Of a stretch of 64,000 bases of DNA, positions 38,554 through 54,307 are shown piece after piece. The position numbers and the translations under genes are program-made. The number at the start of each line of letters is the position of its first letter. The first letter of the stretch is position 1. The stretch spans positions 1 through 64,000 of the forward strand of contig JALUTT010000092.1 in NCBI GenBank assembly GCA_027021705.1, written 5' to 3'. Under the pieces are notes generated by a model. It saw only the letters and a program-made list of their open reading frames with translations, was not told the origin of the DNA and did no database searches. The stretch is from Anaerolineae bacterium. GTDB lineage: Bacteria > Chloroflexota > Anaerolineae > S140-20.

Positions 38554-38582
38554 TTGCGTTTTCTGCAACCCTGAAGTACAAT
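38554..38582 (+). promoter_or_regulatory. Promoter of the signalling operon
   Basis: TTGCGT-N17-TACAAT. Confidence 0.55.
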
Positions 38583-38618
38583 TCTTAGCAGAGGTCCTTC
38601 CCCACCCCAAATCCGGCT

Positions 38619-39668
38619 ATGGAAGCGATCGCCTTACGCAAGCTGCTCCGTCGAGACCTGATAACCGCTGTGCTGGCCGACTTCGCCCGGCTCCTGCCCT
38701 CGTCCGGCTCTCTTTGCCTCTACGACCGGGATGGTCGGGTCCTGGCTGCCTATCCGGCCCCACCATCTCCCGAGCCTGTCGAGGCCATCCGGGCCGTCCT
38801 GGATGGCAGCGGCGCTGTCCCCTTTCCCGGCGGCGTGGCCGAGCCCCTCCTCGTTCAGGGCCGGCCGATAGGGGTCTTGGTGGGAACGGTTGTGGACGTC
38901 CCTCCCTTGCCTGCCCGAAAGGCAGCGGATCCGCCGGCCCTCCACCCCCTGCTCCGGGCGCTGGCGGGGGCGCTGGGCCAGATGGCAACCCTGGCCCTGG
39001 AGAACCGGGCGCTGGCTCTAGAGGCTCTGGACCGCTACCGAGAGTTGAACCTGATCTACCGGATGCAGACGGAACTGGGTGCCGAGCTGGACCCGGACCA
39101 GATCGCCACCCGGGTTCTGGCCGAGAGCATGCGGGTGATCAAGGCGACCCGTGGGGCGATCCTGCTCCTCAGCCAGGACGGACAGAGTCTTGTGGTTCAG
39201 ACTTGCGAGGGGCTGTCCCTGGAGCGCGATCGCTATCCGGCGACGGAAGGGCTCGCTGGTCAGGCTCTCTCCCAACGCCGTTCTTTTCTCATCAACGATC
39301 TAAAGCGGGACCGGCAGCAGGGAACGCTGGAAGCCCATGCCCGTTCCCTCCTCTTCGTCCCCCTGTTGGTGGGGGAGAGGGCACTGGGGGTGATCTGCCT
39401 CTTCGACAAGAAGGGGGGCAAGATCTTCACGGCCGGCGACGAGAAGCTGCTCAACGCCTTGGCCTCTCAGGCCGCTGTTGCCTTCCAGACCGCCCGCCAG
39501 GTCGAGGAGCGAGAGCGCCTCCTGCGCCAGCAGATTCAGGCCCTCCGGGTGGAGATTGACGAGATCAAGAAGCAGCGCCAGGTGGCCGCGATCACCAGCA
39601 CGGACTACTTCGCCCATCTGCAGGCGACCGCCCAGCGGATGCGACAGGAGTTCGAGGAAGAGACCTGA
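38619..39668 (+). CDS. GAF-domain protein with C-terminal coiled-coil tail and no catalytic output
   Basis: GAF (SLLFVPL, LGVI.L.DK, FTAGDEKLL..LA.QAA) then LRVEIDE.KK..QV..IT.TDYF..LQ. Confidence 0.8.
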   Translation: MEAIALRKLLRRDLITAVLADFARLLPSSGSLCLYDRDGRVLAAYPAPPSPEPVEAIRAVLDGSGAVPFPGGVAEPLLVQGRPIGVLVGTVVDVPPLPARKAADPPALHPLLRALAGALGQMATLALENRALALEALDRYRELNLIYRMQTELGAELDPDQIATRVLAESMRVIKATRGAILLLSQDGQSLVVQTCEGLSLERDRYPATEGLAGQALSQRRSFLINDLKRDRQQGTLEAHARSLLFVPLLVGERALGVICLFDKKGGKIFTAGDEKLLNALASQAAVAFQTARQVEERERLLRQQIQALRVEIDEIKKQRQVAAITSTDYFAHLQATAQRMRQEFEEET

Positions 39669-39682
39669 CCGAGACAAGGAGC

Positions 39683-40462
39683 GTGAGGGTGGCCCGACTG
39701 ATCTCCTTCCATTCCTTTCGAGGTGGGACGGGCAAGTCCAACATCACCGCCAACGTGGCAACGGCGGTAGCTCAGGCCGGCTATCGTGTGGGCGTCGTGG
39801 ATACCGACATCCAATCACCAGGCATCCACACCATCTTCCGGTTGGATGAAGGACAGATCCACCGAACCCTGAACGACTACCTGTGGGGACGGTGCGCCGC
39901 CGAGGAGACCGCCTACGACGTGAGCCGCCGGCTGGGGCTGCAAACGGGTCGCCTCTTTCTCGTCCCTTCCAGCATGGATATGTGGGACATCTCCCGCGTG
40001 CTGCACGAAGGGTACGATGCCCGCCAACTCCGCGATGGCTTCAAGACCCTCATCCGCACGCTGGACTTGGACTACCTCCTGATAGATACCCATCCGGGGT
40101 TGAACGAGGAAACATTGCTCTCCATCGCCATCAGCCACATCCTGGTGGTGATCCTGCGCCCCGACGCTCAGGACTACCAGGGCACCAGCGTCACGCTGGA
40201 AGTGGCCCGCAAGCTGAGCGTCCCCCGCATCTACCTGGTGCTCAACAAGGTGCTGCCTGACCTGGACGCTAGGGCACTGCAGCGGGTGGTAGAGGAGCGC
40301 TATCGGACGCCCATCGGGGCGATCCTGCCCCTGTGCGAGGAACTGGTGCGCCTGGGCAGCGAGGGGGTCTTCCTCCTCCAGCAGCCCAACCACCCCTTCT
40401 CCCAAAGGATCCGAGAGTTGGCGGAGACCATCCTGGGTCCCGCCGAGAGCCCCCAACCGTGA
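39683..40462 (+). CDS. MinD/ParA family ATPase
   Basis: HSFRGGTGKS deviant Walker A, VVDTDIQSPG, YLLIDTHPG, VLNKV. Confidence 0.9.
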   Translation: MRVARLISFHSFRGGTGKSNITANVATAVAQAGYRVGVVDTDIQSPGIHTIFRLDEGQIHRTLNDYLWGRCAAEETAYDVSRRLGLQTGRLFLVPSSMDMWDISRVLHEGYDARQLRDGFKTLIRTLDLDYLLIDTHPGLNEETLLSIAISHILVVILRPDAQDYQGTSVTLEVARKLSVPRIYLVLNKVLPDLDARALQRVVEERYRTPIGAILPLCEELVRLGSEGVFLLQQPNHPFSQRIRELAETILGPAESPQP

Positions 40463-40468
40463 TGGACT

Positions 40469-42412
40469 ATGGCTGAGCAAGAATCTCTCTCCTGGCTGGC
40501 TGGCAACCAAATCTACACCCACCGGCGGGCTGAAGGTATCAGCGGGATGGAGATCCTGGCCCTACCCGAAGGGCTGCGCCTGCTGGTCAACGAAGTGCTG
40601 CGACAGGAGCCGGCCCAGGCCGACGAACTGGCCCAGGCCCTGGGGCGGGACCGGGAGACGGTGGAACAGGAGTTGGCCCTGCTGGTCGCCCAGGGCTGGC
40701 TGGAACGGCTCTCCACCCCCGATGGCCCCCGCTACCAGGTCCGGCTGGGTCGCCGTCGCCGCCGCAGCCTACCGCCTGGAATCTGGCAGACGCTGGAAGG
40801 GGTCTGGCGGATGCCCCTCTTCCGCGCCTTCAGCGAAACGGAGTTGGCCGACTTCACCGACGCCTTTCGACAACAATCTCTTCAGGCCGGCGAAGTGCTC
40901 TTTGAGGAAGGGACCTGGGGGGACACGCTCTACCTGGTGGACAGCGGCGAGATCGAGCTGATGACCACGGACATTGAAGGCCGTCCCGTCGTCCTGCGCC
41001 GCTTGCGGGCCGGCGATGTGGTGGGCGAGGCCGCCGTCCTGATCGGCGAACGCTACGCCTTCACCGCCCGGGCCGTCGAGCCCAGCCAGGTCTGGACCCT
41101 GCGCCGGGCAGACCTGGCCCGCCTACTGGCTCAGGACCCTTCTACCGCGCTCCTCTTGGAGCGGGAGCTGAGCGGCCGAGGAGGGGCCACGCCCGCCGAC
41201 AGCCCCCCCGCCCTCAATCCGGTCCTCTTCGTCGGACCAGGCATCGTCGAATTCCTCCAGGTGGTGACCCACTACACTCGCTGCCCCATCACGTTGCTGG
41301 ATCTGCGGCGGGTCTCCCCTACCATCGCCAACCTGCTGGGAAAGCAGGTGGCCTACCGGCCAGCCTGGCGGATGGACGGCAGGAGCCTCTCCCGGGCAAT
41401 CCGGGAGGCTCTGGAAGCCGGCCGTTGGACCTTTGTGGCAGTGCCTCCCACCGATCAACCCTCCTCAGCGCTGATGGGGGTGATCAGCCTGATGGAACTG
41501 ATGATTGATCTCAGCGGCAAGGATCTGCCTTGGATCATCGCTGCCGCTCGTCGCCGCTGGGTCATCCCCGCCGGACCCCGGGTCAACTTGGACCGATTGG
41601 CCCGCCAACTGACGGGACGGACCGTGGGGCTGGTCTTCTCGGGGGGGCTGGCCCGTGCCCTGGCCCACATTGGCGTCCTGCGGGCTCTGCTCCGGGCCAA
41701 GGTCCCGGTGGATGGGGTGACCGGCACCGGGCTGGGGGCAGTCATCGCAGCCCTCTACGCCGCCGATTTCTCCCCCGATGAGATCGCCCAGCGGGTTCAA
41801 CGCGCTCCTCAGGAGCTTAGCCCCTTCGACGGCGGGCGGAACCTGCGCCTGGCCAACCGGGCTGGCCTCTACACCGGCCGGCGGGCTCGCATCGCTCTGC
41901 AGCGCTGGCTGGACGGCCGCTCCTTTGAGGACCTGGTGATCCCCTTTTGCCTGCCGGCCACCGATCTGCGGCGCGGTCAGACCCTTGTCCTGGAGGAAGG
42001 CCCCCTGGCCCAGGCCCTGGAGGTCGCGCTGGCCCTCCCCGGCCTGGTCGTGCCGGTGGAGCGGGACGGGGCGTGGCTGGTGGATGGGTGGCTGCACAAC
42101 CCGCTGCCTGCCCACCTTCTCCGTCAACAGGGCATCGGCCTGATCATCGGCATCAACACCCTCCCAGGACCGCCCTCGGAGCCCCGGGAGACCTCGCTCG
42201 ACCTGACCCGCACCTGGCTGGAGATTCAGACCCGGCTGGCCCACGCCGCGATGCTCCGCCACCTCTCCGACCTGGACTTCCTCATCACGGTCCCCCTGGA
42301 CAACGTGGCCGAGACCGACTTCGACCGGGCAGAGGAGATCATCGTCCGGGGGGAGGAGGCAGCGGAGCGACAAATGGACATCCTGCGTGATCTGCTGCGG
42401 CTGGAGTGGTAG
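40469..42412 (+). CDS. Winged-helix + cNMP-binding + patatin-like fusion protein
   Basis: N-terminal ELAQAL......V...L..LV..GWL; cNMP domain GEVLF.EG..GD.LY.V.SG; patatin GLVFSGG.AR..AHIGVL, ATDL..G, LVDG. Confidence 0.85.
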   Translation: MAEQESLSWLAGNQIYTHRRAEGISGMEILALPEGLRLLVNEVLRQEPAQADELAQALGRDRETVEQELALLVAQGWLERLSTPDGPRYQVRLGRRRRRSLPPGIWQTLEGVWRMPLFRAFSETELADFTDAFRQQSLQAGEVLFEEGTWGDTLYLVDSGEIELMTTDIEGRPVVLRRLRAGDVVGEAAVLIGERYAFTARAVEPSQVWTLRRADLARLLAQDPSTALLLERELSGRGGATPADSPPALNPVLFVGPGIVEFLQVVTHYTRCPITLLDLRRVSPTIANLLGKQVAYRPAWRMDGRSLSRAIREALEAGRWTFVAVPPTDQPSSALMGVISLMELMIDLSGKDLPWIIAAARRRWVIPAGPRVNLDRLARQLTGRTVGLVFSGGLARALAHIGVLRALLRAKVPVDGVTGTGLGAVIAALYAADFSPDEIAQRVQRAPQELSPFDGGRNLRLANRAGLYTGRRARIALQRWLDGRSFEDLVIPFCLPATDLRRGQTLVLEEGPLAQALEVALALPGLVVPVERDGAWLVDGWLHNPLPAHLLRQQGIGLIIGINTLPGPPSEPRETSLDLTRTWLEIQTRLAHAAMLRHLSDLDFLITVPLDNVAETDFDRAEEIIVRGEEAAERQMDILRDLLRLEW

Positions 42413-42456
42413 CGGATTGCGGATTGCAAATGGCGAATTGCCCATTGTGGATTGCA
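42413..42456. repeat. Degenerate heptanucleotide repeat (CGGATTG-type)
   Basis: cggattg cggattg caaatgg cgaattg cccattg tggattg. Confidence 0.65.
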
Positions 42457-42475
42457 GGTTGCGTTGGAGGAGGCG

Positions 42476-42862
42476 ATGTCCAAGAAGATCCTGATCGTGG
42501 ATGACGAAATCTACATCCGGGTGCTGCTGGAGCAGACGCTGGAGGACTTCGAGGACGCCGGCGTTGAACTGCTGGCCGTGGGCGATGGCCTAGAGGCGTG
42601 GGAGGTCGCCCGAACCGAGCGCCCCGACCTCATCATCCTAGACGTGATGATGCCCGGCCTCTCAGGCTATGAGGTCTGCCAGCGCATCAAGAGCGACCCC
42701 GATCTCTCCGACATCCACGTCATCATGCTCACCGCCAAGGGGCAAGAGATAGACCGGCTGCGCAGCATCGAGGTGGGCGCCGATGAGTACATCACCAAGC
42801 CCTTCGATCCCGACTACCTCATCGAGCGCACTGCCGACGTGCTGGGCGTCAGCATCGCGTAG
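42476..42862 (+). CDS. Single-domain response regulator (receiver)
   Basis: ILIVDDE, LDVMMP, MLTA, YITKPF. Confidence 0.95.
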   Translation: MSKKILIVDDEIYIRVLLEQTLEDFEDAGVELLAVGDGLEAWEVARTERPDLIILDVMMPGLSGYEVCQRIKSDPDLSDIHVIMLTAKGQEIDRLRSIEVGADEYITKPFDPDYLIERTADVLGVSIA

Positions 42863-42874
42863 AGGATCGTACCC

Positions 42875-45649
42875 ATGCAGGCTCCCCAGGAGGCCCTGCA
42901 ACAGGAACAACGCCTTTTCCAGGCCCTCCAGATCCTCTCAGCCCGCATCACCACTTTCCACGATCGGGACCCGCTGCTGGAGGCACTGGTACAGGGCGTG
43001 ACGGAGGTCTTGGGCTATTACAACGCCCGGGTCTTCCTGCTGGACGAAGGGCGGGAGGAGCTCTACCTGGTCGCCTCCGCTCGACCCCCCGCGCCATCGG
43101 TGGACACACCGCGCTTTCGGATCGGTCCTGAGGGGGCCATCGGGCGGGTGGCCAGTAGCGAGGCCCCCCTTCTGATCCCCGACGTGGCTCAGTGCGATTT
43201 CTCCACGCCCTCGGACCCGGCAATCCGCTCTGAGATGGCCGTCCCGATGTTCGTGGGCGGCCGGCTGGTGGGTGTCCTCGATGTTGAGAGCGATCGCCCT
43301 CACGCCTTTCAGGCCCAAGACCTGGCAGTGATGACGGCTCTGGCCAACCAGACCGCAGCCGCCCTCGAGGCTGCCCGCCTGCTGCAGGAGAGCCGGACCA
43401 CGACCATCGCTCTGGAGCAGCAGGCCCGCAACCTGATGCTCATCAACCGCATCTCCACGACCCTGGCCTCCTCGCTGGACGCCTACGAGATCCTCGACGT
43501 GAGCCTCCGGCACCTGGTAGAGCTGAGCGAGGCGGACTACGGAGGCGTCCTCATCGTGGAGCGGGGGCGGGAGCGGGGCCTGATCGCCGCCGAATACCCC
43601 TTCCGCCGCCTCACCGGCACCCGTCTCCCTCTGCCCCACCTCCCCTCGGCCCGACGAATGCTGGAGGCGGGGATCCCCTACGCCATCAAGGATGCCCTCC
43701 ACCATCCACTCCTGGACCCCCTGCGAGAGCAGATCGCCCCCCTGGACATCCGCTCGTTGCTCCTGGTCCCGATGGTAGCCCGGGACGAGATGATCGGCAT
43801 CTTGCTGCTGGCCTCCCTGGGGCGACGTCGGACCTTCAACGACGAGGAGATGGAACTCTGCCAGACGGTGGTCAACCAAGCGGCTGCCGCCATCGCCAAC
43901 GCCCGCCTCCTGCAGGACATTCAGCAGCAGAGCCGCGCCTTGGCCCGCAAGAGCCAGGAGCTGGCCGAGGAGTCGAGCAAGCTGGACGCCATCCTCAACA
44001 ACATCGCCGACGGCCTGGTGGTGACCGATCCCACAGGGCGCATCATCCTGAGCAATCCGGCCTTCCGTGAGATGGCCGGGCTACCCTCGGGCCGATCCTT
44101 GCGGGGGCGTCTGCTGGCGGAATCCTTCCCCGTGGCCGGCCTGCAGCCCCTCGCCGACCAAGCCCTGCACGCCCCTGGTCAGGTCTTCACCGAGAACCTG
44201 GAGCTGCCTGATGGTCGGGTCTTGAAGACCTCGGCCACCGCCCTCCGCCTCCCTCCGCCCGTCCTGGAGCCAGAGCAGGGCGAGCAGATCGCCGGCGTCG
44301 TCACCGTCCTGCGGGACATCACCCACGAGGTGGAAGTAGATCGGATGAAGACCGATTTTATCTCCGCCGTCTCCCACGAGCTGCGCACCCCGCTCACCTC
44401 GATCCTCGGCTTTGCCAGCCTGATCCAGCGGGAGTTTCGCCGCCGCATCGCCCCCCACGTAGCTGCCGACGACCGTGCCCGCCAAGTTGCCGACCGCATT
44501 CTAGACAACCTGACGATCATCGAGCGGGAAAGCCGGCGGCTCACCCGGCTCATCAACGACGTGCTGGACATCGCCAAGATGGAAGCAGGACGGGTGGAGT
44601 GGCACATGGCGGAGACCGACCTCTCCGGCGTCATCCAGAGCGCCGTGGCTGCCACCTCCGCCTTGGCCGAGGAGAAGAACTTGCCCATCCAGGTCTACCT
44701 ACCCCCGGAGGGGCTGCCTCCCGTCTGGGGGGACCGGGACCGACTCATTCAGGTGATGACCAACCTGCTCTCCAACGCCATCAAGTTCACCGAGCGGGGA
44801 CAGGTTGAGGTGCGCGGCTGGCGGCTGACCGTCGAAGGTGAGACCCTTCGGTGCGCCGGCCCCTTCCCGATCCCCTACGAGCCGGCCTCCGAGATCCAGG
44901 AGACCCTCACCGGCCTCCACTTCTCCGACGGCGAATGGGTGGTCGTGAGCGTTGTGGACACAGGCATCGGCATTCCCGACGAAGACCTGCCCCGCGTCTT
45001 CGAGAAGTTTACCCAGGTGGGGGATACGCTGACCGAGAAGCCCCGAGGGACGGGACTGGGGCTTTCCATCTGCCGAGAGATCATCGAGCACCACGGGGGA
45101 CGTATCTGGGCGCGAAGCCGGTTCGGCCTGGGCAGCACCTTCTCCTTCGCTCTCCCCTTGAAGGTCGCGCCGGCTTCCGGTCGGACACGACCAGCGGCCT
45201 GGTCTCCTGGCACCGTTGCCAAGCCCATCACTGCCCACTCCATCTCTGCCACCGCTCCCGCCCTTCCCAGCCGGGGACGGGGGCATACCATTCTGGTGGC
45301 CGACGACGAGGCCAACATCCGGCGTATGTTGCGCCAGGAGCTGAGTGAGGCGGGGTACCGGGTCATCGAGGCCGCCGACGGAGCCGAAGCGCTGGCCCAG
45401 GCCCGCCAGGAACAGCCTGACCTCATCGTCTTGGATGTGATGATGCCCGGCGTCTCCGGCTTCGATGTCACCAGCGCCCTCAAGGCCGACGAACGTACCC
45501 AGAAGATCCCCATCGTCATTCTCTCCATCGTCGAGGACCGGGAGCGGGGGCTGCGGCTGGGGGCCGACGCCTACCTGACCAAGCCGGTGGACACGGTTCG
45601 TCTGCTGAAAGTGGTGGAAACGTTAATTGCGACGAGGGGCTTGGAGTGA
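42875..45649 (+). CDS. Hybrid histidine kinase GAF-GAF-PAS-HisKA-HATPase-REC
   Basis: Two GAFs, PAS (IADGLVVTD..G), SHELRTPL, NLLSNAIKF, GTGLGL, receiver LDVMMP and YLTKP. Confidence 0.93.
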   Translation: MQAPQEALQQEQRLFQALQILSARITTFHDRDPLLEALVQGVTEVLGYYNARVFLLDEGREELYLVASARPPAPSVDTPRFRIGPEGAIGRVASSEAPLLIPDVAQCDFSTPSDPAIRSEMAVPMFVGGRLVGVLDVESDRPHAFQAQDLAVMTALANQTAAALEAARLLQESRTTTIALEQQARNLMLINRISTTLASSLDAYEILDVSLRHLVELSEADYGGVLIVERGRERGLIAAEYPFRRLTGTRLPLPHLPSARRMLEAGIPYAIKDALHHPLLDPLREQIAPLDIRSLLLVPMVARDEMIGILLLASLGRRRTFNDEEMELCQTVVNQAAAAIANARLLQDIQQQSRALARKSQELAEESSKLDAILNNIADGLVVTDPTGRIILSNPAFREMAGLPSGRSLRGRLLAESFPVAGLQPLADQALHAPGQVFTENLELPDGRVLKTSATALRLPPPVLEPEQGEQIAGVVTVLRDITHEVEVDRMKTDFISAVSHELRTPLTSILGFASLIQREFRRRIAPHVAADDRARQVADRILDNLTIIERESRRLTRLINDVLDIAKMEAGRVEWHMAETDLSGVIQSAVAATSALAEEKNLPIQVYLPPEGLPPVWGDRDRLIQVMTNLLSNAIKFTERGQVEVRGWRLTVEGETLRCAGPFPIPYEPASEIQETLTGLHFSDGEWVVVSVVDTGIGIPDEDLPRVFEKFTQVGDTLTEKPRGTGLGLSICREIIEHHGGRIWARSRFGLGSTFSFALPLKVAPASGRTRPAAWSPGTVAKPITAHSISATAPALPSRGRGHTILVADDEANIRRMLRQELSEAGYRVIEAADGAEALAQARQEQPDLIVLDVMMPGVSGFDVTSALKADERTQKIPIVILSIVEDRERGLRLGADAYLTKPVDTVRLLKVVETLIATRGLE

Positions 45650-48600
45650 AGATGAGAGCGCTGCGGACCGGTTACTTGCGCTTCCTCGTCTTGGCGCTGG
45701 GCATGGCCATCCTGCTCTACGGCCTTGCCCTCTTCGCCCTGATCGTGCGGCTCCCCCACGATGGCTACAGCGTCCACTTCTCCCGGGAGGGAGTTGTCGT
45801 GGACCAGGCCAACCTGATCGGCCCGCTCCGGGTGGGTGACGTGATCACCAACATCGCCGATCACCCCGTGCACGCCGATCTGATGAAGCCGGGGGAGTGG
45901 TATCGGCGGCTCTTCGCGAAGGCGGAGCGCCTCCTTACGTACCAGGTGCGTCGAGATGCGGAGACGTTGCTGTTGACTGTGGACCTGGCCCGACCCATTT
46001 CGGGGGCCCTGCTGGCCCACGTCGGCGTGCTCTACGTGATCGGCCTCACTTTCGTCCTCAGTGGTTTGCTGGTCGCCTTCCACCGAGGAGGGGGGAAGGG
46101 GGATCGGGCCGGCCGCTTGATCGCGGTCACCTTTCTCCTGGAGGGGCTCAACCTCTTCACCAACACGACCAACGCTGCCGGTGCCAACCTGGCCGTTGCC
46201 TTCTTCTGGATCACTGTCCCGTTGGACGTGATCTCCTTTTGGCTGGTCCTCAGCTTCTTCCTCCACAGCTTTCTCGTCTTCCCCGAAGAGGTGAGTTGGA
46301 TCCGACGCCGCTCTTGGGTGGTGCCGACCATCCACCTGGTGAACCCCGTGGTCGCTGGCCTGGGGAGCTGGCTGCTGGGCGGAGGAGAGGTCCTGCCCAC
46401 CCGAGCCATTCTCTTCCGCCTCAGTTACCCCATCGGCGGGTTGATGCTCCTGATGGGAGTGGGGCGGCTCATCTACCTCTACCGGACCACCCATCGTCCT
46501 CTGGTGCGCACCCAGATCCGCTGGCTGGTCTGGGGGCTGGTGGTGGGAACGCTACCCTGGTTGCTCTTCTTCAACCTCCCGATCATCCTTAGTGGGGAGC
46601 CTCTCCTTCCCTTGGGGCTGACCCTGGTGCCCCTCATCGCCATTCCCATCACCTTCACCTTCGCCGTGACCCGCTACCGGCTGCTTTCCATTGATCGGCT
46701 CATCAACCGGAGCCTGGTCTACGGAGCGCTGAGCCTCGTCCTGGTCGTTTTCTACTTTGCCACCGTCGCCCTCTTCAGCCGGATGGTGCAGATCGCGGCC
46801 GCCGGGGTGGAGGACACGACCATCGTCTTCTTCTCCACCTTGCTGGTCGCGCTTCTCTTCCTGCCGGCCCGCCAGCGCATCCAGGCAGCCATTGACCGCA
46901 CCTTCTACCGGCACAAGATCACCTTCCAGCAGGTGCCGGCCCAAGTTGGCCGGGAGCTGAGCACTACCCTCGTCTTCGATCAACTGACCACCCTCCTGAC
47001 GGAACGTCTCCCCCGGCAACTGGAGATCGCTGGCGCGGTCCTCTACATCCTCGACGAAGAGGCCTCCCGGTTCACCCCTCACGGCTCCCTGACAGGGGAA
47101 CCAATCCCCGCCCAGGCTCCCTTCCTCACCCCGCTGCGAGGGGGGAACAAGCCCCTCGTCTGGACGGGCGAGGAAGGGAAGGATGGCCTGTGGACTGTCG
47201 CCCCATCGGTAGCCCTCTGGCTGCCCCTCGTAGGGCGGGGCGGGCTCATCGGCCTCTATGGGCTGGGGGTCAAGGAGTCGGGGGACCTCTACACCGATGA
47301 GGAGATCGAGTCTCTGCGCCTCCTGAGCCACCAGATCGCCATCGCTGTGGAGAACGCCCGCCTCTACCGCCAGGTGGAGGCTTACAGCAAAGGGTTGGAA
47401 GCCCAGGTCCAGGAGCGCACCCAGGCCCTGGAGGCGGCCAACCAGGCCCTCTGCCAGGAGAAGAGCAAGCTGGACGCGGTGATCCACAACATCGCCGACG
47501 GCCTGGTCGTAACCGATTCTGCCGGGCACATCCTCCTGACCAACCCTGTCTTCCAGCGGATGGTGGGCCAGCCAGCGACGTGGCTTCGGGGGCAGTCCTT
47601 GGCCGATCTCCCCTTTGACGAAGGGCTGGTCATGGTCGTCGCCCAGGCGCTGGAGGAGGTCGGTCAGGTCTTCACCACCGACGTTCAGGCAGCTAAGCGC
47701 ATCTATCGGGCCTCGGCCACCGCTCTCCAGACCGATGGACGGGCCACCGGCGTCGTCACCGTGCTGCGGGACGTCACCCACGAGGTGGAGGTGGACCGGA
47801 TGAAGACCGACTTCATCTCCACCGTTTCCCACGAGCTGCGCACCCCCCTCACCTCTGTCCTGGGATTCGCCCGCCTCATCCGCAAGGCTTTCGAGCGGGA
47901 GATCGTCCCGGTCCTGCCGGAGGTACGCCAGGTCCAGCGGGCCAAGAAACGGATCCTGGACAACCTGACCATCATCGAGAGCGAGAGCCAGCGGCTCACC
48001 CGCCTCATCAACGACGTGCTGGACATCGCCAAGATGGAAGCAGGGCGGATGGAGTGGCATATGGAGGAGACCGACCTGGGCGAGGTGATCCGACAGGCCA
48101 TCGCCGCCACCACTGCCCTGGCCGGCGAGAAAGGGCTGCCCATCCAGGTTGACCTTCCCGCGGAGGGGCTGCCCCCCATCTGGGGAGATCGAGACCGACT
48201 GATCCAGGTGATGACCAACCTGCTCTCCAACGCCATCAAGTTCACCGAGCGGGGCCGGATCGAGGTGCGCGGCGAGGTGATCCCGGCAGAGGCCGTGGCC
48301 ACCCTGCGATCAGGAGACGCTCCCCTGCCACCGGGGGAGTGGGTAGCGGTCCATGTGACCGACACCGGCGTGGGCATCCGGGCCGAGGACTTGCCCCACG
48401 TCTTCGAAAAGTTCCGCCAGGTGGGGAACGCGCTGACCAACCGCCCCCGGGGCACCGGGTTGGGGCTCTCCATTTGCAAGGAGATCGTTGAGCACCACGG
48501 AGGTCGGATCTGGGTCGAGAGCCAGGTAGGGGTGGGCAGTACTTTTTCCTTTGCACTGCCGCTGACCGGGACAGGGGCTGTGCCGGAATCCCCGGCCGAG

Positions 48601-49386
48601 CCCAAGCTGACCCCGCTGGTGGAGATCCGACGACGAGTCGAAGCTCAGCTTCCCCTGCCCCCATCGGGGACGAAGACGATCCTGGTGGCCGACGACGAGG
48701 CCAACATCCGCGAACTGCTCCGGCAGGAGTTGGCCGAGGCCGGCTACCGGGTCATCGAGGCCGCCGATGGGCCGGAGGCGCTGGAGAAGGCCCGTCGGGA
48801 GCGGCCCGACCTGATCATCCTGGACGTGATGATGCCCGGTGTCTCCGGCTTCGACGTCACCAGCGTGCTCAAAGCCGACGAGCAGACCCAGGAGATTCCC
48901 ATCCTCATCCTCTCCATCATCGAGGATCGGGAGCGGGGGCTGCGACTGGGAGCCGACGCCTACCTGACCAAGCCGGTCGAGGTGGATGCCCTGTTGACGA
49001 CCATCGCCCGCCTCCTGGCGAAGGACCAGGGTCCCATCCGGCGCAAGGTCCTGGTCATTGACCGAGACCAGTCGGCGGTGGAAGCCATCACCCGCACGCT
49101 GCGGGAACGCGGCTACGAGGTCGTCGAGGCTTACGACCCACGCGGGGCGATCCTGAAGGCCCGGCGGGAGAAACCGGACTTGGTCATCCTGGACGCGATG
49201 ATCTCCCAAATGAACGACTACGAAGTGCTCAAGGCGCTGCGTTATCAGGACCGAGAGGGACGGACCTGCATCATCGTCCTGGCGGGGGAGGTCTCGCCCC
49301 AGCAGGAGGCCGAAGCTCGGCGGCAGGGGGCCGATGACGTGGCGCGGCGGGAAGACCTGCCCGACCTGCTGGATGAAGGTCGGTAA
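45646..49386 (+). CDS. Membrane hybrid histidine kinase: PDZ-like/multi-TM-GAF-PAS-HisKA-HATPase-REC-REC
   Basis: LRVGDVI..I PDZ-like loop, many TM helices, SHELRTPL, two receivers (second atypical). Confidence 0.9.
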   Translation: MKMRALRTGYLRFLVLALGMAILLYGLALFALIVRLPHDGYSVHFSREGVVVDQANLIGPLRVGDVITNIADHPVHADLMKPGEWYRRLFAKAERLLTYQVRRDAETLLLTVDLARPISGALLAHVGVLYVIGLTFVLSGLLVAFHRGGGKGDRAGRLIAVTFLLEGLNLFTNTTNAAGANLAVAFFWITVPLDVISFWLVLSFFLHSFLVFPEEVSWIRRRSWVVPTIHLVNPVVAGLGSWLLGGGEVLPTRAILFRLSYPIGGLMLLMGVGRLIYLYRTTHRPLVRTQIRWLVWGLVVGTLPWLLFFNLPIILSGEPLLPLGLTLVPLIAIPITFTFAVTRYRLLSIDRLINRSLVYGALSLVLVVFYFATVALFSRMVQIAAAGVEDTTIVFFSTLLVALLFLPARQRIQAAIDRTFYRHKITFQQVPAQVGRELSTTLVFDQLTTLLTERLPRQLEIAGAVLYILDEEASRFTPHGSLTGEPIPAQAPFLTPLRGGNKPLVWTGEEGKDGLWTVAPSVALWLPLVGRGGLIGLYGLGVKESGDLYTDEEIESLRLLSHQIAIAVENARLYRQVEAYSKGLEAQVQERTQALEAANQALCQEKSKLDAVIHNIADGLVVTDSAGHILLTNPVFQRMVGQPATWLRGQSLADLPFDEGLVMVVAQALEEVGQVFTTDVQAAKRIYRASATALQTDGRATGVVTVLRDVTHEVEVDRMKTDFISTVSHELRTPLTSVLGFARLIRKAFEREIVPVLPEVRQVQRAKKRILDNLTIIESESQRLTRLINDVLDIAKMEAGRMEWHMEETDLGEVIRQAIAATTALAGEKGLPIQVDLPAEGLPPIWGDRDRLIQVMTNLLSNAIKFTERGRIEVRGEVIPAEAVATLRSGDAPLPPGEWVAVHVTDTGVGIRAEDLPHVFEKFRQVGNALTNRPRGTGLGLSICKEIVEHHGGRIWVESQVGVGSTFSFALPLTGTGAVPESPAEPKLTPLVEIRRRVEAQLPLPPSGTKTILVADDEANIRELLRQELAEAGYRVIEAADGPEALEKARRERPDLIILDVMMPGVSGFDVTSVLKADEQTQEIPILILSIIEDRERGLRLGADAYLTKPVEVDALLTTIARLLAKDQGPIRRKVLVIDRDQSAVEAITRTLRERGYEVVEAYDPRGAILKARREKPDLVILDAMISQMNDYEVLKALRYQDREGRTCIIVLAGEVSPQQEAEARRQGADDVARREDLPDLLDEGR

Positions 49387-49399
49387 AGGGTGAGGTAAG

Positions 49400-51289
49400 G
49401 TGGAAGAGAAGATCCGACTGCGAAGACTCCTCCCTTCCAAACAGGTTGCAGCACTGCTGGCCGACTTCGCGCCCCTCCTGGGCAAGGACGTCGCCCTGGC
49501 GGTGACCGACCAGGATGGCCGGCCGTTGGGGAGCCATCCCACCTTCCCGTCCGAGGCCATCCGGTTTCTGCGGGAGGCGGTCCACGAAGCGGCGGAGATC
49601 GTGATCACCCCTCAGGGGGCCCTCACCCCCCTCCGGGCCGAGGGCTGTGAGGTGGGGTGGGTCTTGGCGCTTGGCTCCCTCCCCTCGGCCTCGCGGACGC
49701 GGGCTCTACTAAAGGCGTTGCGCCAGGCTCTAGAGACCTTGATCGGTGTCGCTTTGGAGAAGCGGGCCCTGGCTCGAGAGACGCTGGACCGCTACCGGGA
49801 GATCAACCTGCTCTACAACCTGGGGGAGACGCTGGCCACCTGTATGGGGGTGCAGGAGCTCCTCCAGCGGGTGCTGACCCAGGCCAGCCAGATCATCCAA
49901 GCACGCCGGGGAGCCGTCCTGCTCTATGACGAGGAGGGCCGGCTGACCGTCGCGGCCAGCACCGGTTTGGAGGCAGGCGGAACGCTGGCCCAGGAGGGGC
50001 GAGCGCTGGCGGAGGAGGTGGCTCGCACGGGCAAGCCCCAGATCATCAACGACTTCACCAACGGCGAAGGGCGGGTCCCTCTCCTGGCCGTTCCGATGCG
50101 CACCTCGGAACGGCGGCTGGGAGCCATCCTCCTGGCCGACAAGGCGGATGGGGCGATCTTCACGGCGGGGGATGAGAAGCTGCTGGCCGCCTTGGCCTGG
50201 CAGGCAGCTATCTTTCTGGAAAATGCCCGCCTCTTCGAGAACGTGCGTCGGCAGCGGGACGAGATCGCCACGATGAAGCGCTACATGGATAACATCTTCG
50301 CCAGCATCGCCAGCGGCGTCATCACCACCGATACTCAGGACGTCATCACCACCTTCAACCGGGCTGCCGAAACCATCCTGCGCGTCCCCGCCCACGAAGC
50401 GGTCAACCGCCCCTACCGTCAGGTGCTCGGTTTCTTGCGCGACACCCCGCTTCCCACCCTCATCGAGGAGGTCCGTCGGCACTGCAAGAGCCGCATTGCC
50501 CAGGAGATCACCTCTCGGCTTCCTCAGGGGGAGCAGGTTCACCTGAGTCTGAACCTCTCCACCCTGCGGGGGAGCAACGGGGAGACGCTGGGCGTGGCCA
50601 TCGTATTGGACGACGTGACGGAGAAGCGGCGCTATGAGCGGGAGCGGGCCTTGGTCCGCCGCTATCTGCCGCCTGAACTGGTAGACCGGCTGCCCGATGA
50701 CCTGGCCGAGCTGGGGCTGCGGGGTGAGCGGCGGGTCATCACCGTCCTCTTCGCCGACATCCGGGGCTTCACCAGCTTCAGCGAGGTGAACCCGCCTGAG
50801 CGCGTCGTCGAAGTGATCAACAACTACCTGGCCCTGGCCGAGGGGGCGGTCCGCTACCATCGGGGCATCGTGGACAAGTACATGGGGGACGCCGTGATGG
50901 CCCTCTTTAACACCCCTCTCTTGGAAGAGCAGGAGCATGCTTGGCGGGCGGTGCAGGCAGCTTGGGGCCTGCAGGAGGCCGTGGCGGCCTACCATCAGCG
51001 CGTCCCGCCGGAGGAACGGCTCTTTATGGGCATTGGGATCTGCACCGGCGAAGCGGTCGTGGGCAATGTAGGAACGGAAGACCGGATGGAGTACACGGCC
51101 ATCGGGGACACGGTCAACGTAGCCAAGCGGCTGCAGGAGAACGCCCGTCCGGGGCAGGTGCTCCTGGGTCGGACGACGTGGGAGGCGGTGCGAGACCGGG
51201 TGCGGGTGAAAGCACTGCCTGCTGTGCGGGTCAAGGGTCGGCAGACGGTCACGCAGATCTACGAACTGGTCGGTCTCGTGGGGGAATAA
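49400..51289 (+). CDS. Class III adenylate cyclase with GAF and PAS domains
   Basis: FADIRGFT, DKYMGD, YTAIGDTVNVAKRL, VKG; Lys/Thr specificity residues typical of ATP use. Confidence 0.92.
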   Translation: MEEKIRLRRLLPSKQVAALLADFAPLLGKDVALAVTDQDGRPLGSHPTFPSEAIRFLREAVHEAAEIVITPQGALTPLRAEGCEVGWVLALGSLPSASRTRALLKALRQALETLIGVALEKRALARETLDRYREINLLYNLGETLATCMGVQELLQRVLTQASQIIQARRGAVLLYDEEGRLTVAASTGLEAGGTLAQEGRALAEEVARTGKPQIINDFTNGEGRVPLLAVPMRTSERRLGAILLADKADGAIFTAGDEKLLAALAWQAAIFLENARLFENVRRQRDEIATMKRYMDNIFASIASGVITTDTQDVITTFNRAAETILRVPAHEAVNRPYRQVLGFLRDTPLPTLIEEVRRHCKSRIAQEITSRLPQGEQVHLSLNLSTLRGSNGETLGVAIVLDDVTEKRRYERERALVRRYLPPELVDRLPDDLAELGLRGERRVITVLFADIRGFTSFSEVNPPERVVEVINNYLALAEGAVRYHRGIVDKYMGDAVMALFNTPLLEEQEHAWRAVQAAWGLQEAVAAYHQRVPPEERLFMGIGICTGEAVVGNVGTEDRMEYTAIGDTVNVAKRLQENARPGQVLLGRTTWEAVRDRVRVKALPAVRVKGRQTVTQIYELVGLVGE

Positions 51290-51353: not shown

Positions 51354-51380
51354 AAAAAGGGGGGCTGTCAGCCCCCCAAA
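51354..51380. terminator. Terminator between the cyclase and hsp20
   Basis: ggggggct-gtc-agcccccc with an A run upstream (U tract on minus strand). Confidence 0.7.
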
Positions 51381-52398: not shown

Positions 52399-53685
52399 AT
52401 GATCCGGCGGGTGAGAGTCCGAGGGTACAAGTCGCTCAAAGAGATTGAGGTAAAGCTTCGACCGTTGACCGTTTTCATCGGTCCAAATGCTGCCGGCAAA
52501 AGCAACCTCTTCGACGCGCTGGGGCTGCTGAGCCGATCTGTGACTTCCCGGAATCTGGCCGAAGCGTTTAAGGAGCATCGCGGTGCCCCCTTGGAGGCTT
52601 TCTACTACGGTGATCAGGGGCTGAAGGGGCTCCTTGCACGACCTACTGTAGAGTTCACCATCGAAGTGGATGTCGAACTCTCGTCTGAGGTCGTTCGGGC
52701 TGTTGAGCAGCGCATCCAGGATATGCGGGAGGGGCTGCCAGAAGACGGAAACACATCGGGGCCATCCCGGCGTCGGGTCACCGAGCCGTTGCTGCGGTAC
52801 ACGCTGACCGTGCAGATGGCTGTGGAGTCGGGGTATCTGCGGGTGATGGAGGAACAATTGGTTGCCCTAACCCGCGATGGGAGGGTCAAGGCTTCCCGAC
52901 GAGCATTCATCGAGCCCGTAAAAGGCCGTCTCCGACTCCGGTTGGAAGGACAGGCCCGGCCAACGGAATACGAAGTTGGCCTGGATTACACGCTGGTCTC
53001 GATGCCTCTCTATCCACCTCACTATCCTCATATCACGGCCTTTCGAGAAGAACTCTCCCGCTGGCGTTTCTACTACTTCGACCCAAAGACTATGCGGGCG
53101 GAGGTGCCTCTCAAAGAGGTTGAGAACCTGGGAGCTTTTGGGGCTGACCTGGCCGCTTTCTACAGCACTTTGAAGTCGCGGCACCCTCGGCAGTTCGAGG
53201 CTTTGAACCGGGCCCTCCGCTCTCTGCTGCCCGATGTCCAGCGTCTGGATGTCGAGCGTACCGATGAAGGGTTTCTGCGCCTACAGGTCTTCGAGAGAGG
53301 AGTTCCCTTCTCGGCTCGCATCATCTCCGAAGGCACTCTCCGTATCCTGGGGCTGTTGGCCATCACCAACCCCCTGTCACCGACAACGGTCATCGGATAC
53401 GAGGAACCGGAGAATGGGGTTCATCCCCGGCGTCTCCAGCTTATCGCCGATCTGCTCAAGAACGCCTCCGAGACCGGAAAACAGGTCCTGGTCAATACCC
53501 ACTCGCCTAAATTGCCTACCTACTTTGATCCCCAGGCTCTCATTGTCTGTCGCAAAGAGGGGGGTAAAACTTCTTTTCTCCCCCTTTTGGACTTGGGACC
53601 TGTGTTCCAACCAGCGCTTATTGAACAAGCCCTGGCCGAGACCCCGCTGTCGGAACGGATCTTGAGGGGGGATTTCGGTGGATGA
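52399..53685 (+). CDS. ABC-type ATPase (AAA_21-like)
   Basis: V.GYKSL, GPNAAGKS, ISEGTLR, EEPENGVHP, NTHSP. Confidence 0.9.
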   Translation: MIRRVRVRGYKSLKEIEVKLRPLTVFIGPNAAGKSNLFDALGLLSRSVTSRNLAEAFKEHRGAPLEAFYYGDQGLKGLLARPTVEFTIEVDVELSSEVVRAVEQRIQDMREGLPEDGNTSGPSRRRVTEPLLRYTLTVQMAVESGYLRVMEEQLVALTRDGRVKASRRAFIEPVKGRLRLRLEGQARPTEYEVGLDYTLVSMPLYPPHYPHITAFREELSRWRFYYFDPKTMRAEVPLKEVENLGAFGADLAAFYSTLKSRHPRQFEALNRALRSLLPDVQRLDVERTDEGFLRLQVFERGVPFSARIISEGTLRILGLLAITNPLSPTTVIGYEEPENGVHPRRLQLIADLLKNASETGKQVLVNTHSPKLPTYFDPQALIVCRKEGGKTSFLPLLDLGPVFQPALIEQALAETPLSERILRGDFGG

Positions 53686-54307
53686 AATTCGCATCGGATA
53701 CTTCTTGGAGGATATAGGCCAGGAGCAATTTCTGCGAACTTTGGTGGAGCGGGTCGCCCAAGAAGTTGGGATCGCCTCCCAACGGCTTCGCCACGAAGTG
53801 CGAAATGCCACCGGAGGGCGAGGCAAGGTGCTGGACGAACTGCGGCGGTTCTTACGCGATGTCGGTCGTGAGCGCGAGAGTCCCTTTCCCTTGCTGATTG
53901 TCGCCATAGATGGCAACTGCAAGGGGTACCAGGAAAGGCGGAACGAAATCCACGCCATCGTCGAACGGAGTGGCTACAGAGGACGGGTAATCTGCGCCGT
54001 GCCCGATCCCCACATCGAGCGATGGTATTTGGTGGCCCCACGCACGCTTCAGCGGGTGTTGGGGGTCTCGGTCACTCCCGGCGTGCCTCCCTACAAATGC
54101 GAACGTGGCCGCTACAAACGGGCGCTCCGCGAGGCCATCCGGCAAGCAGGCATAATAGCGCCTCTGGGAGGCATCGAATACGGCCCTGACGTTGCAAGGG
54201 CTCTCGACTTGTACACTGTTGGTCGAGCCGATCCGGGATTCAAGCACTTCGTGGATGAACTGCGAGAGGGGTTGTCCCCTTTCGTGCGATCCCAGGACCC
54301 TTGGTAA
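53678..54307 (+). CDS. DUF4276/RloB-like (TOPRIM-related) partner protein
   Basis: FLED, VAIDGN, IERWYL, F..F motifs; overlaps the ATPase stop. Confidence 0.6.
   Translation: MDEIRIGYFLEDIGQEQFLRTLVERVAQEVGIASQRLRHEVRNATGGRGKVLDELRRFLRDVGRERESPFPLLIVAIDGNCKGYQERRNEIHAIVERSGYRGRVICAVPDPHIERWYLVAPRTLQRVLGVSVTPGVPPYKCERGRYKRALREAIRQAGIIAPLGGIEYGPDVARALDLYTVGRADPGFKHFVDELREGLSPFVRSQDPW

Follow-up and report, generated by a model that had tools for sequence, protein, structure and literature searches.

The window analysed here is a stretch of 64,000 nucleotides, positions 1 to 64,000 of contig JALUTT010000092.1 in the genome assembly GCA_027021705.1 of an Anaerolineae bacterium (Chloroflexota). 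It holds an operon of seven open reading frames (ORFs), g1 to g7, which run on the + strand from position 38619 to position 51289 as one unit of 12.7 kb. Judged from sequence comparisons, the operon is probably (a probability of about 0.58) an elaborate member of a widespread and seemingly undescribed signalling module, in which sensor proteins act through a C-terminal tail on a dedicated MinD/ParA-like ATPase. The core of the module, made up of tail, ATPase and wHTH partner, is seen in hundreds of bacteria. The GAF-tail protein g1 would be the tail-bearing sensor, g2 the ATPase, and a winged helix-turn-helix (wHTH) domain within g3 the partner of the ATPase. The reading starts from the gene content and domains of the operon, the conservation of their order, a genome-wide co-occurrence, and single chains in which sensor, tail and ATPase, or ATPase and wHTH, are fused. 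The genes and domains are the following.

38619-39668, + strand: g1, sensor protein; N-terminal region (residues 1-150) without a Pfam match, GAF domain, C-terminal tail
39456-39662, + strand: tail module of g1, about 58-70 residues, helical, at the end of the protein; tail profile E 1.3e-25
39683-40462, + strand: g2, MinD/ParA-like ATPase; Pfam matches above cut-off
40469-42412, + strand: g3, wHTH, cNMP-binding domain, NTE P-loop-like middle and inactive patatin domain
40535-40813, + strand: wHTH partner domain of g3, with a basic stretch and LPPGIW at its end; wHTH profile E 1.6e-29
40874-41137, + strand: cNMP-binding domain of g3, residues 136-223; Pfam cNMP_binding 1e-22
41630-42121, + strand: patatin-like domain of g3, Gly421 in place of Ser, Asp539 kept; Pfam Patatin 5e-25
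42452-42862, + strand: g4, single-domain receiver; Pfam Response_reg 9e-30
42875-45649, + strand: g5, soluble hybrid histidine kinase; Pfam
45646-49386, + strand: g6, membrane hybrid histidine kinase; Pfam and hydropathy
49400-51289, + strand: g7, GAF-PAS-class III nucleotide cyclase; Pfam Guanylate_cyc 3.7e-21

Recurrence of the tail, the ATPase and the wHTH domain

The operon proteins were compared by tblastn with 80 loci fetched with an ATPase profile (the candidates numbered 614 stretches, of which 606 passed confirmation), and profiles were then built from the pieces that recurred. Only two pieces of the other operon proteins are found again next to the ATPase: ~58 residues at the C-terminal end of g1 and ~110 residues at the N-terminal end of g3. 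The neighbourhood check suggested with the original prediction for this stretch came out in favour of a linked set: the tail lies within 7 kb of the ATPase in 56 of the 80 loci, the wHTH adjoins it in 27, and a cyclase or cNMP domain is present in 29. The end of the tail is at most 1.1 kb upstream of the ATPase, on the same strand, in 38 of the 74 loci that have at least 1.5 kb of upstream DNA. The wHTH is usually a free protein of 100-150 residues, with a basic stretch and an LPxxIW motif at its end. Since many loci are on short contigs, these adjacency counts are lower bounds. In the operon itself the gene with the tail at its end immediately precedes the ATPase gene, and the wHTH adjoins the ATPase on the other side: the profile match of the g1 tail ends 21 bases, and the g1 stop 14 bases, before the start of g2 at 39683, and the wHTH domain of g3 begins 73 bases after the end of g2.

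Co-occurrence extends to whole genomes. In a sample of 201 genomes of the phylum the ATPase is present in 32 and the tail in 34, and all 32 genomes with the ATPase have the tail, often in several copies, some of them far from the ATPase gene. The wHTH is found at E <= 1e-11 in 17 genomes, each of which has the ATPase, and the six wHTH matches in genomes that lack it are partial and weak. In the genome of the window, the ATPase family has exactly one member and the tail profile a single match, the tail of g1.

A search for fusions yielded 132 longer homologues of g2 at E <= 1e-40, and the architectures were read from the 120 listed. A single chain in the order sensor-tail-ATPase is found in 104 of these 120, namely REC-tail-ATPase (74), tail-ATPase behind other inputs such as dCache and PAS according to the Pfam lists (20), cNMP-tail-ATPase (8) and HK-REC-tail-ATPase, with a histidine kinase (HK) in front (2). 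The others are an ATPase-wHTH protein (1), an HK-ATPase protein (1) and ATPases with other or no recognised additions (14). The domain order in the fused chains is the gene order of the operon. In two loci (L012:625-1725 and L062:5838-7055) a second, diverged copy of the ATPase is fused to the wHTH and stands beside a canonical copy; the diverged copy of L012 has lost the P-loop lysine. Tandem pairs of a canonical and a diverged ATPase are also present in several genomes of the phylum sample. The fused chains in gene order, together with the two fusions of an ATPase paralogue to the wHTH, are the strongest argument that sensor, tail, ATPase and wHTH form one device.

The original prediction had several inputs converging on an ATPase module and recognised no named system in the operon. 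The tail-ATPase co-occurrence, the fusions and the conserved synteny lend strong support to such a convergence and are in agreement with the lack of a name. The partners of the ATPase had escaped that first reading: by sequence these would be the tail at the C-terminus of g1 and the wHTH domain of g3, and the trio is widespread and not specific to this operon. The comparisons speak neither for nor against the spatial organisation (cargo positioning) that the original prediction gave to the complex.

The operon is conserved to different depths. In genome G262, which belongs to another genus of the window's family, the seven genes are all present and their order is unchanged, at 40-68% identity. 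Two genomes of another family (G326 and G357) have g1-g4 only, between unrelated flanks, with phosphofructokinase upstream and cupin, RpiB and glycosyltransferase genes downstream. Genes g5-g7 were seen beside g1-g4 only in the window's own family. The earlier description of the complex as self-contained is therefore right only in part, since g1-g4 alone travel together across families.

Several loci have further large or clustered genes around the ATPase. Proteins of ~960-1010 residues with the wHTH in mid-protein and no Pfam or NCBIfam match lie beside the ATPase in L072:2368-5274 and L046:12110-15007, and the same type is present in genomes G002, G015 and G056. A conserved protein of ~870 residues, also without a Pfam or NCBIfam match, is encoded between the tail gene and the ATPase in L030:7246-9837 and has homologues in the cyanobacterial loci L022, L042, L044, L048 and L061. 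In Nostocales, a dCache-HAMP-tail gene and the ATPase are located inside bacteriocin export clusters of the NHLP/Nif11 type (L010:8167-15646; similar clusters in L003, L005, L014, L030, L040, L045, L057 and L058). These clusters hold DUF7005 (PF22541, 582 bits), a protein with two cNMP domains (TIGR03896, 412 bits), the NHLP HlyD protein (TIGR03794, 466 bits), an ABC transporter and radical SAM genes. Because the Nostocales clusters contain no wHTH, DUF7005 may be the partner of the ATPase there.

The C-terminal tail

Protein g1 matches Pfam GAF_2 at 1e-21 over residues 157-290 and had been described as output-less; it has instead a conserved module at its C-terminus. Among 1.84 billion proteins, 1725 representatives match the tail profile at E <= 1e-10, and 2560 do so at E <= 0.001. 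In 32 proteins of the loci, the domains in front of the tail are dCache_1-HAMP, CHASE2, CHASE-PAS-PAS, Tll0287-like-HAMP, HAMP alone, GAF, cNMP_binding, REC and HisKA-REC. A Pfam census of the best 150 representatives gave HAMP in 91, REC in 24, dCache_1 in 24, HisKA in 12 and GAF in 10, and no kinase-ATPase, GGDEF, MCP or cyclase family is among the 25 families shown. In 130 of the 150 the tail stops no more than 15 residues short of the C-terminus, and in 147 no more than 40. Because varied input domains precede it and because it ends the protein, the tail appears to behave as an output module of sensors. It is covered by no Pfam family in the operon proteins or in the proteins of the census, and a search of the ESM Atlas with the tail returned scores below 0.9 to unrelated clusters only and no structure match. 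Genome G086 has a tail gene (locus L097, G086:C63, 6033-7151) for a protein with multiple transmembrane segments, and the contig ends 600 bases after the gene.

The MinD/ParA-like ATPase

The assignment of g2 to the MinD/ParA ATPases stands. Three Pfam models of the ParA/MinD superfamily (ParA/AAA_31/CbiA) match it above cut-off: PF10609 with 60.7 bits (cut-off 27.1), PF13614 with 58.8 (27) and PF01656 with 56.6 (25.4). The deviant Walker A motif with its signature lysine is KGGxxK[ST] in Table 1 of PMC9178275. The Walker A motif of g2 is RGGTGKS, with Arg13 at the position of the signature lysine and the catalytic Lys18 kept; the arginine is invariant in 17 aligned members of the family, and g2 thus departs from KGGxxK[ST]. 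The family keeps Lys18, Asp40/42 and Asp135, and with them its acidic switch residues. Its C-termini vary in the alignment and, by reading, have no conserved membrane helix of the MinD type. More than 8000 proteins match g2 at E <= 1e-10, and members from Chloroflexota, cyanobacteria and other phyla are 55-68% identical and share long invariant blocks. The ATPases of two Methanobacteriota loci (L067 and L078) are 53-55% identical to g2 and are located beside an amino-acid permease and other unrelated genes. In a quick tree the ATPase of the window groups with those of the two other loci of the g3 type (support 96), and the types of locus cluster on the tree, which has 30 label changes where shuffled labels average 53.1 and none of 200 shuffles is as low.

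The best match of g2 to a solved structure is archaeal MinD-1 (1HYQ, E 5e-17), and Aquifex MinD (4V02/4V03) is matched as well. Like MinD, g2 belongs to this fold family as a P-loop ATPase of ~250 residues with a GGxGK[ST] motif and partners encoded alongside. The two differ in that the signature lysine is arginine in g2 and in that the partners of g2 would be sensor tails and the wHTH in place of MinC and MinE. No Min, ParB or Che family was found among the seven genes and eight flanking ORFs, the part of the window that was scanned, and the earlier statement that minC/minE, parB and che genes are absent holds for these ORFs. A function as the septum-site MinD of cell division was rejected: g2 scores 41.1 bits against TIGR01968 (cut-off 212.9) and 85.9 bits against TIGR01969 (cut-off 201.75), and a true MinD is encoded elsewhere in the genome (contig C61, 391.9 bits). 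The KGGVGR-motif variant AAA ATPase family NF047398 is matched with 78.3 bits, below its cut-off of 90, and the motif of g2 is RGGTGKS. A role in plasmid or chromosome partition was rejected on the chromosomal signalling context and the fusions to sensors.

The wHTH, cNMP-binding and patatin domains of g3

All three domains of the predicted wHTH-cNMP-patatin fusion are seen in the Pfam scan of g3, the wHTH weakly and as MarR-like, next to cNMP_binding and Patatin (89.2 bits against a cut-off of 27.7). An AlphaFold model of the wHTH (pLDDT, the model's own confidence score, 82) resembles MarR/ArsR proteins. A Foldseek search with this model returned generic matches of the MarR/ArsR type, none at E <= 0.001. 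As modelled, the fold of the wHTH partner is of the MarR/ArsR DNA-binding type.

Residues 110-643 of g3 align with the cNMP-NTE_Ploop-patatin lipases of the NTE family, a type that is encoded by 43 of 301 genomes in the class. The middle of g3 is diverged and NTE P-loop-like, and the model PF24179 (NTE_Ploop) is found in a canonical relative, P0130. Protein g3 differs from these lipases in its additional N-terminal wHTH and in the loss of the catalytic serine. The nucleophile site reads GTGLG in g3 (Gly421) and GTSMG in the canonical P0129 and P0132. Glycine replaces the serine in all eight g3 homologues, full-length or partial (P0121-P0128), so that the term pseudo-patatin was well chosen and describes a conserved trait. 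The aspartate of the Ser-Asp dyad is kept, and Asp539-Gly540 is nearly invariant in the alignment of orthologues. Homologues of the g3 type number only eight in a search of 5.8 billion proteins, and the full form with the wHTH is found in 6 of the 301 class genomes, including one that is truncated where its contig stops and one that is divided between two frames. By these searches, g3 is a rare architecture.

Possible cyclic AMP and phosphorylation inputs

Protein g7 has the domains GAF-PAS-Guanylate_cyc (PF00211, 76 bits against a cut-off of 21.9) and finds its best alignment with a cyanobacterial cyclase (2W01) and an engineered form of that enzyme (6FHT). In the alignment with these two structures the segments faDirgF, vdKymGD, eyTaiGD and vNvakR contain the residue set of a class III cyclase: both metal-binding aspartates, the lysine and threonine of the substrate position, the asparagine and the arginine. 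We take the aspartates to bind metal, the lysine to contact the substrate and the asparagine and arginine to stabilise the transition state; read in this way, g7 would be an adenylate cyclase. In Chloroflexota loci, cNMP-tail proteins and cyclases adjoin the ATPase. Some of these loci encode very large cyclase-AAA_16(-TPR) proteins together with the module (L018:12450-16496, L018:17275-20745, L021:12342-15959 and L054:5699-9274). Small cNMP-tail proteins are encoded in L018:16474-17247 and L069:16875-17633 and suggest a direct route from cyclic AMP (cAMP) to the tail in these loci.

The receiver g4, which may start at an ATG 24 nucleotides downstream of the annotated start, keeps the acidic pocket, the phospho-acceptor aspartate, the threonine and the lysine, as read from the translation. 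It directly follows g3 in all five orthologous loci, at 64-69% identity. The kinases have the Pfam domains GAF-GAF-PAS-HisKA-HATPase-REC (g5) and GAF-PAS-HisKA-HATPase-REC-REC (g6), and the first 410 residues of g6 contain about 7-8 hydrophobic segments. The phosphorelay named in the original prediction has its hybrid kinases g5 and g6 and its receiver g4; no Hpt domain is seen at E <= 0.01 in the seven operon proteins, the part of the genome searched for it, which makes the term a loose one.

A possible mechanism

The sensors of the proposed module would carry a short helical tail at the C-terminus instead of an output of the kinase, cyclase or MCP type. A dimeric sensor would present the tail to the ATPase, and binding of the tail may shift the ATP-dependent dimerisation of the ATPase or its hydrolysis cycle. 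The partner of the ATPase would be a small winged-helix protein with a basic LPxxIW peptide at its end, and the state of the ATPase may control this partner, probably its binding to DNA and hence transcription. In the operon, cAMP made by g7 would be read by g3, in which the wHTH is fused to a cNMP-binding domain, so that the second messenger would reach the partner directly. The free receiver g4 would take its phosphate from the kinases g5 and g6, and cAMP and phosphorylated g4 may both modulate the step from the ATPase to the wHTH. Elsewhere, REC-tail proteins and HK-REC-tail-ATPase chains show phosphorylation as an input to the ATPase module.

Several observations weigh against this reading. 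The tail is missing within 7 kb of the ATPase in 24 of the 80 loci, some of which are short contigs, and both archaeal loci lack the tail and the wHTH in the DNA fetched. A wHTH at E <= 1e-6 is present in only 18 of the 32 genomes with the ATPase and hence cannot be the universal output. The marker-complete genome G086 has a strong tail and no ATPase at E <= 1e-15. Receiver g4, whose link to the module is part of the proposal, has no tail. The window's genome contains 14 matches to the cyclase domain, and a neighbouring cyclase alone therefore carries little weight. Finally, the genomes compared are kin and not independent observations, so that the co-occurrence counts overstate independence.

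Alternative explanations and known systems

The first alternative is a positioning system. The ATPase would then resemble PpfA or ParC: the wHTH would serve it as a ParB-like DNA adaptor, the tail would mark the cargo, and the ATPase would place or segregate clusters of sensors and transmit no signal. According to PMC9178275 and PMC5706961, orphan ParA/MinD ATPases position chemoreceptor clusters through partner proteins, and PpfA-TlpT and ParC-ParP are, like the module, ParA/MinD-type ATPases tied to receptors. The modelled wHTH fold, being of a DNA-binding type, would suit a ParB-like adaptor. The basic C-terminal peptide of the wHTH, which resembles the ATPase-stimulating peptides of ParB or MinE, was counted on the same side. 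Receptors of the PpfA and ParC systems, however, keep an MCP signalling domain and work with CheA and CheW, whereas no che genes were seen among the ORFs scanned around the operon, and the tail is the sole output-side element of the sensors and is often fused to the ATPase. Most tail proteins in the census have no other output domain to be positioned, and one chain of sensor, tail and ATPase, the arrangement of 104 of the 120 listed long homologues, would be odd for a cargo and its motor. The variable C-termini of the ATPase, without the MinD-type helix, also speak against positioning, which fits poorly with output-less sensors and single-chain proteins and is considered unlikely.

A second alternative, a loose neighbourhood, takes g1-g4 as the real unit and g5-g7 as ordinary two-component and cAMP genes that signal elsewhere. 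It would account for G326 and G357, in which g5-g7 are not next to g1-g4, and it is consistent with the many cyclases of the genome and with the lack of Hpt in the seven proteins. The tight packing of g4-g7 (gaps of 12, -4 and 13 bases) and the seven-gene order kept in G262 at only 40-68% identity argue for a common unit, as does the cNMP domain of g3, which needs a cyclase. The HK-REC-tail-ATPase fusions, and the hybrid-kinase and receiver genes beside a REC-tail gene in L072, also point to a link of phosphorylation with the module. The loose neighbourhood is regarded as quite improbable.

Anti-phage defence of the Pycsar/CBASS kind, in which a cyclase signal would activate a cNMP-binding patatin effector, was rejected as very improbable, since the PADLOC matches that suggest it (PycC-type matches to g7, best 88 bits, and cNMP-domain matches to g3) cover shared domains only, the nucleophile serine is missing in g3 and all eight orthologues, g7 has GAF-PAS sensor domains, and the conserved partners in the operon are an ATPase, a GAF-tail protein and a receiver.

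The proposed sensor-tail-ATPase module also resembles known systems in its logic. FleN/FlhG, as described in PMC9178275, is a MinD-like ATPase that regulates a DNA-binding regulator, FleQ, and does not position DNA. FleN structures are among the weaker matches of g2 in the PDB. FleQ is an AAA+ enhancer-binding protein, in contrast to the small wHTH of the module. We know of no sensor-tail inputs to FleN/FlhG. The conservons of Streptomyces (CvnA-D) and the MglA/MglB switches combine a sensor, a nucleotide-switch protein and accessory proteins in one operon; they are alike in logic, and their switches are Ras-like GTPases with Roadblock proteins. The operon has as traits of its own the GAF-tail sensor, the fusion of a wHTH, a cNMP-binding domain and a dead patatin, the fixed free receiver, the two hybrid kinases and the GAF-PAS cyclase.

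Transcription signals and flanking DNA

The seven tightly spaced same-strand genes of the original prediction are borne out by the ORF coordinates and the Pfam scan; the intergenic gaps from g1 to g7 are 14, 6, 39, 12, -4 and 13 bases. Two further features lie outside the genes.

38554-38583, + strand: promoter-like TTGCGT-17 nt-TACAAT, 36 nucleotides (nt) before the start of g1; read by eye
51359-51377, T-run on the - strand: GC-rich hairpin, 70 nt past g7

The promoter claimed in front of the operon was found in part. A promoter scan gave no + strand site ahead of g1, the site read by eye being below the threshold of the scan, and elements resembling -35 and -10 are present at the equivalent spot in five orthologous loci. 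The claimed terminator did not hold up: the hairpin has no T-run on the + strand and, since its T-run is on the - strand, formally terminates the convergent HSP20 gene.

The flanks of the operon are unrelated to it, with DinB_2 and M20 peptidase genes upstream and, downstream, the convergent HSP20 gene followed in DNA of lower GC content by an AAA_21/AAA_15 ATPase with DUF4276. The last two genes (window 52399-54307) encode the ATPase of 428 residues and then the DUF4276 protein of 209 residues. Their GC content is 0.57-0.58, compared with ~0.66 in the operon, and the two genes have the look of an insertion, a module of the ABC-ATPase type.

Significance of the proposed module

Neither Pfam nor NCBIfam has a name for the tail, the wHTH or the clade of g2-type ATPases. 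In the full-text literature searched, which left most subscription journals outside, there was no description of the tail, of DUF7005 or of a sensor-coupled MinD-like ATPase. A bolder proposal, offered tentatively at slightly less than even odds, is that the tail, the RGGTGKS-type ATPase and the wHTH constitute a separate and widespread class of prokaryotic signal transduction. Cache, CHASE2, HAMP, GAF, cNMP and receiver inputs would set the nucleotide or dimer state of an ATPase and not that of a kinase or cyclase, and this state would control a DNA-binding partner. In the version represented by the operon described here, both cAMP and His-Asp phosphorylation would be connected to this one hub.

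The operon lends itself to tests, since a second messenger, a phosphorylation input and the ATPase hub meet in a single unit of 12.7 kb, which is also kept in a second genus; a few purified proteins would be enough to test the idea directly. If the proposal is true, receptors now annotated as 'HAMP domain protein' or 'response regulator' without an output would gain a pathway, and a large clade of orphan MinD/ParA proteins would gain a role in signalling and not in positioning. The module would then be a new type of wiring alongside the one-component, two-component and chemosensory systems.

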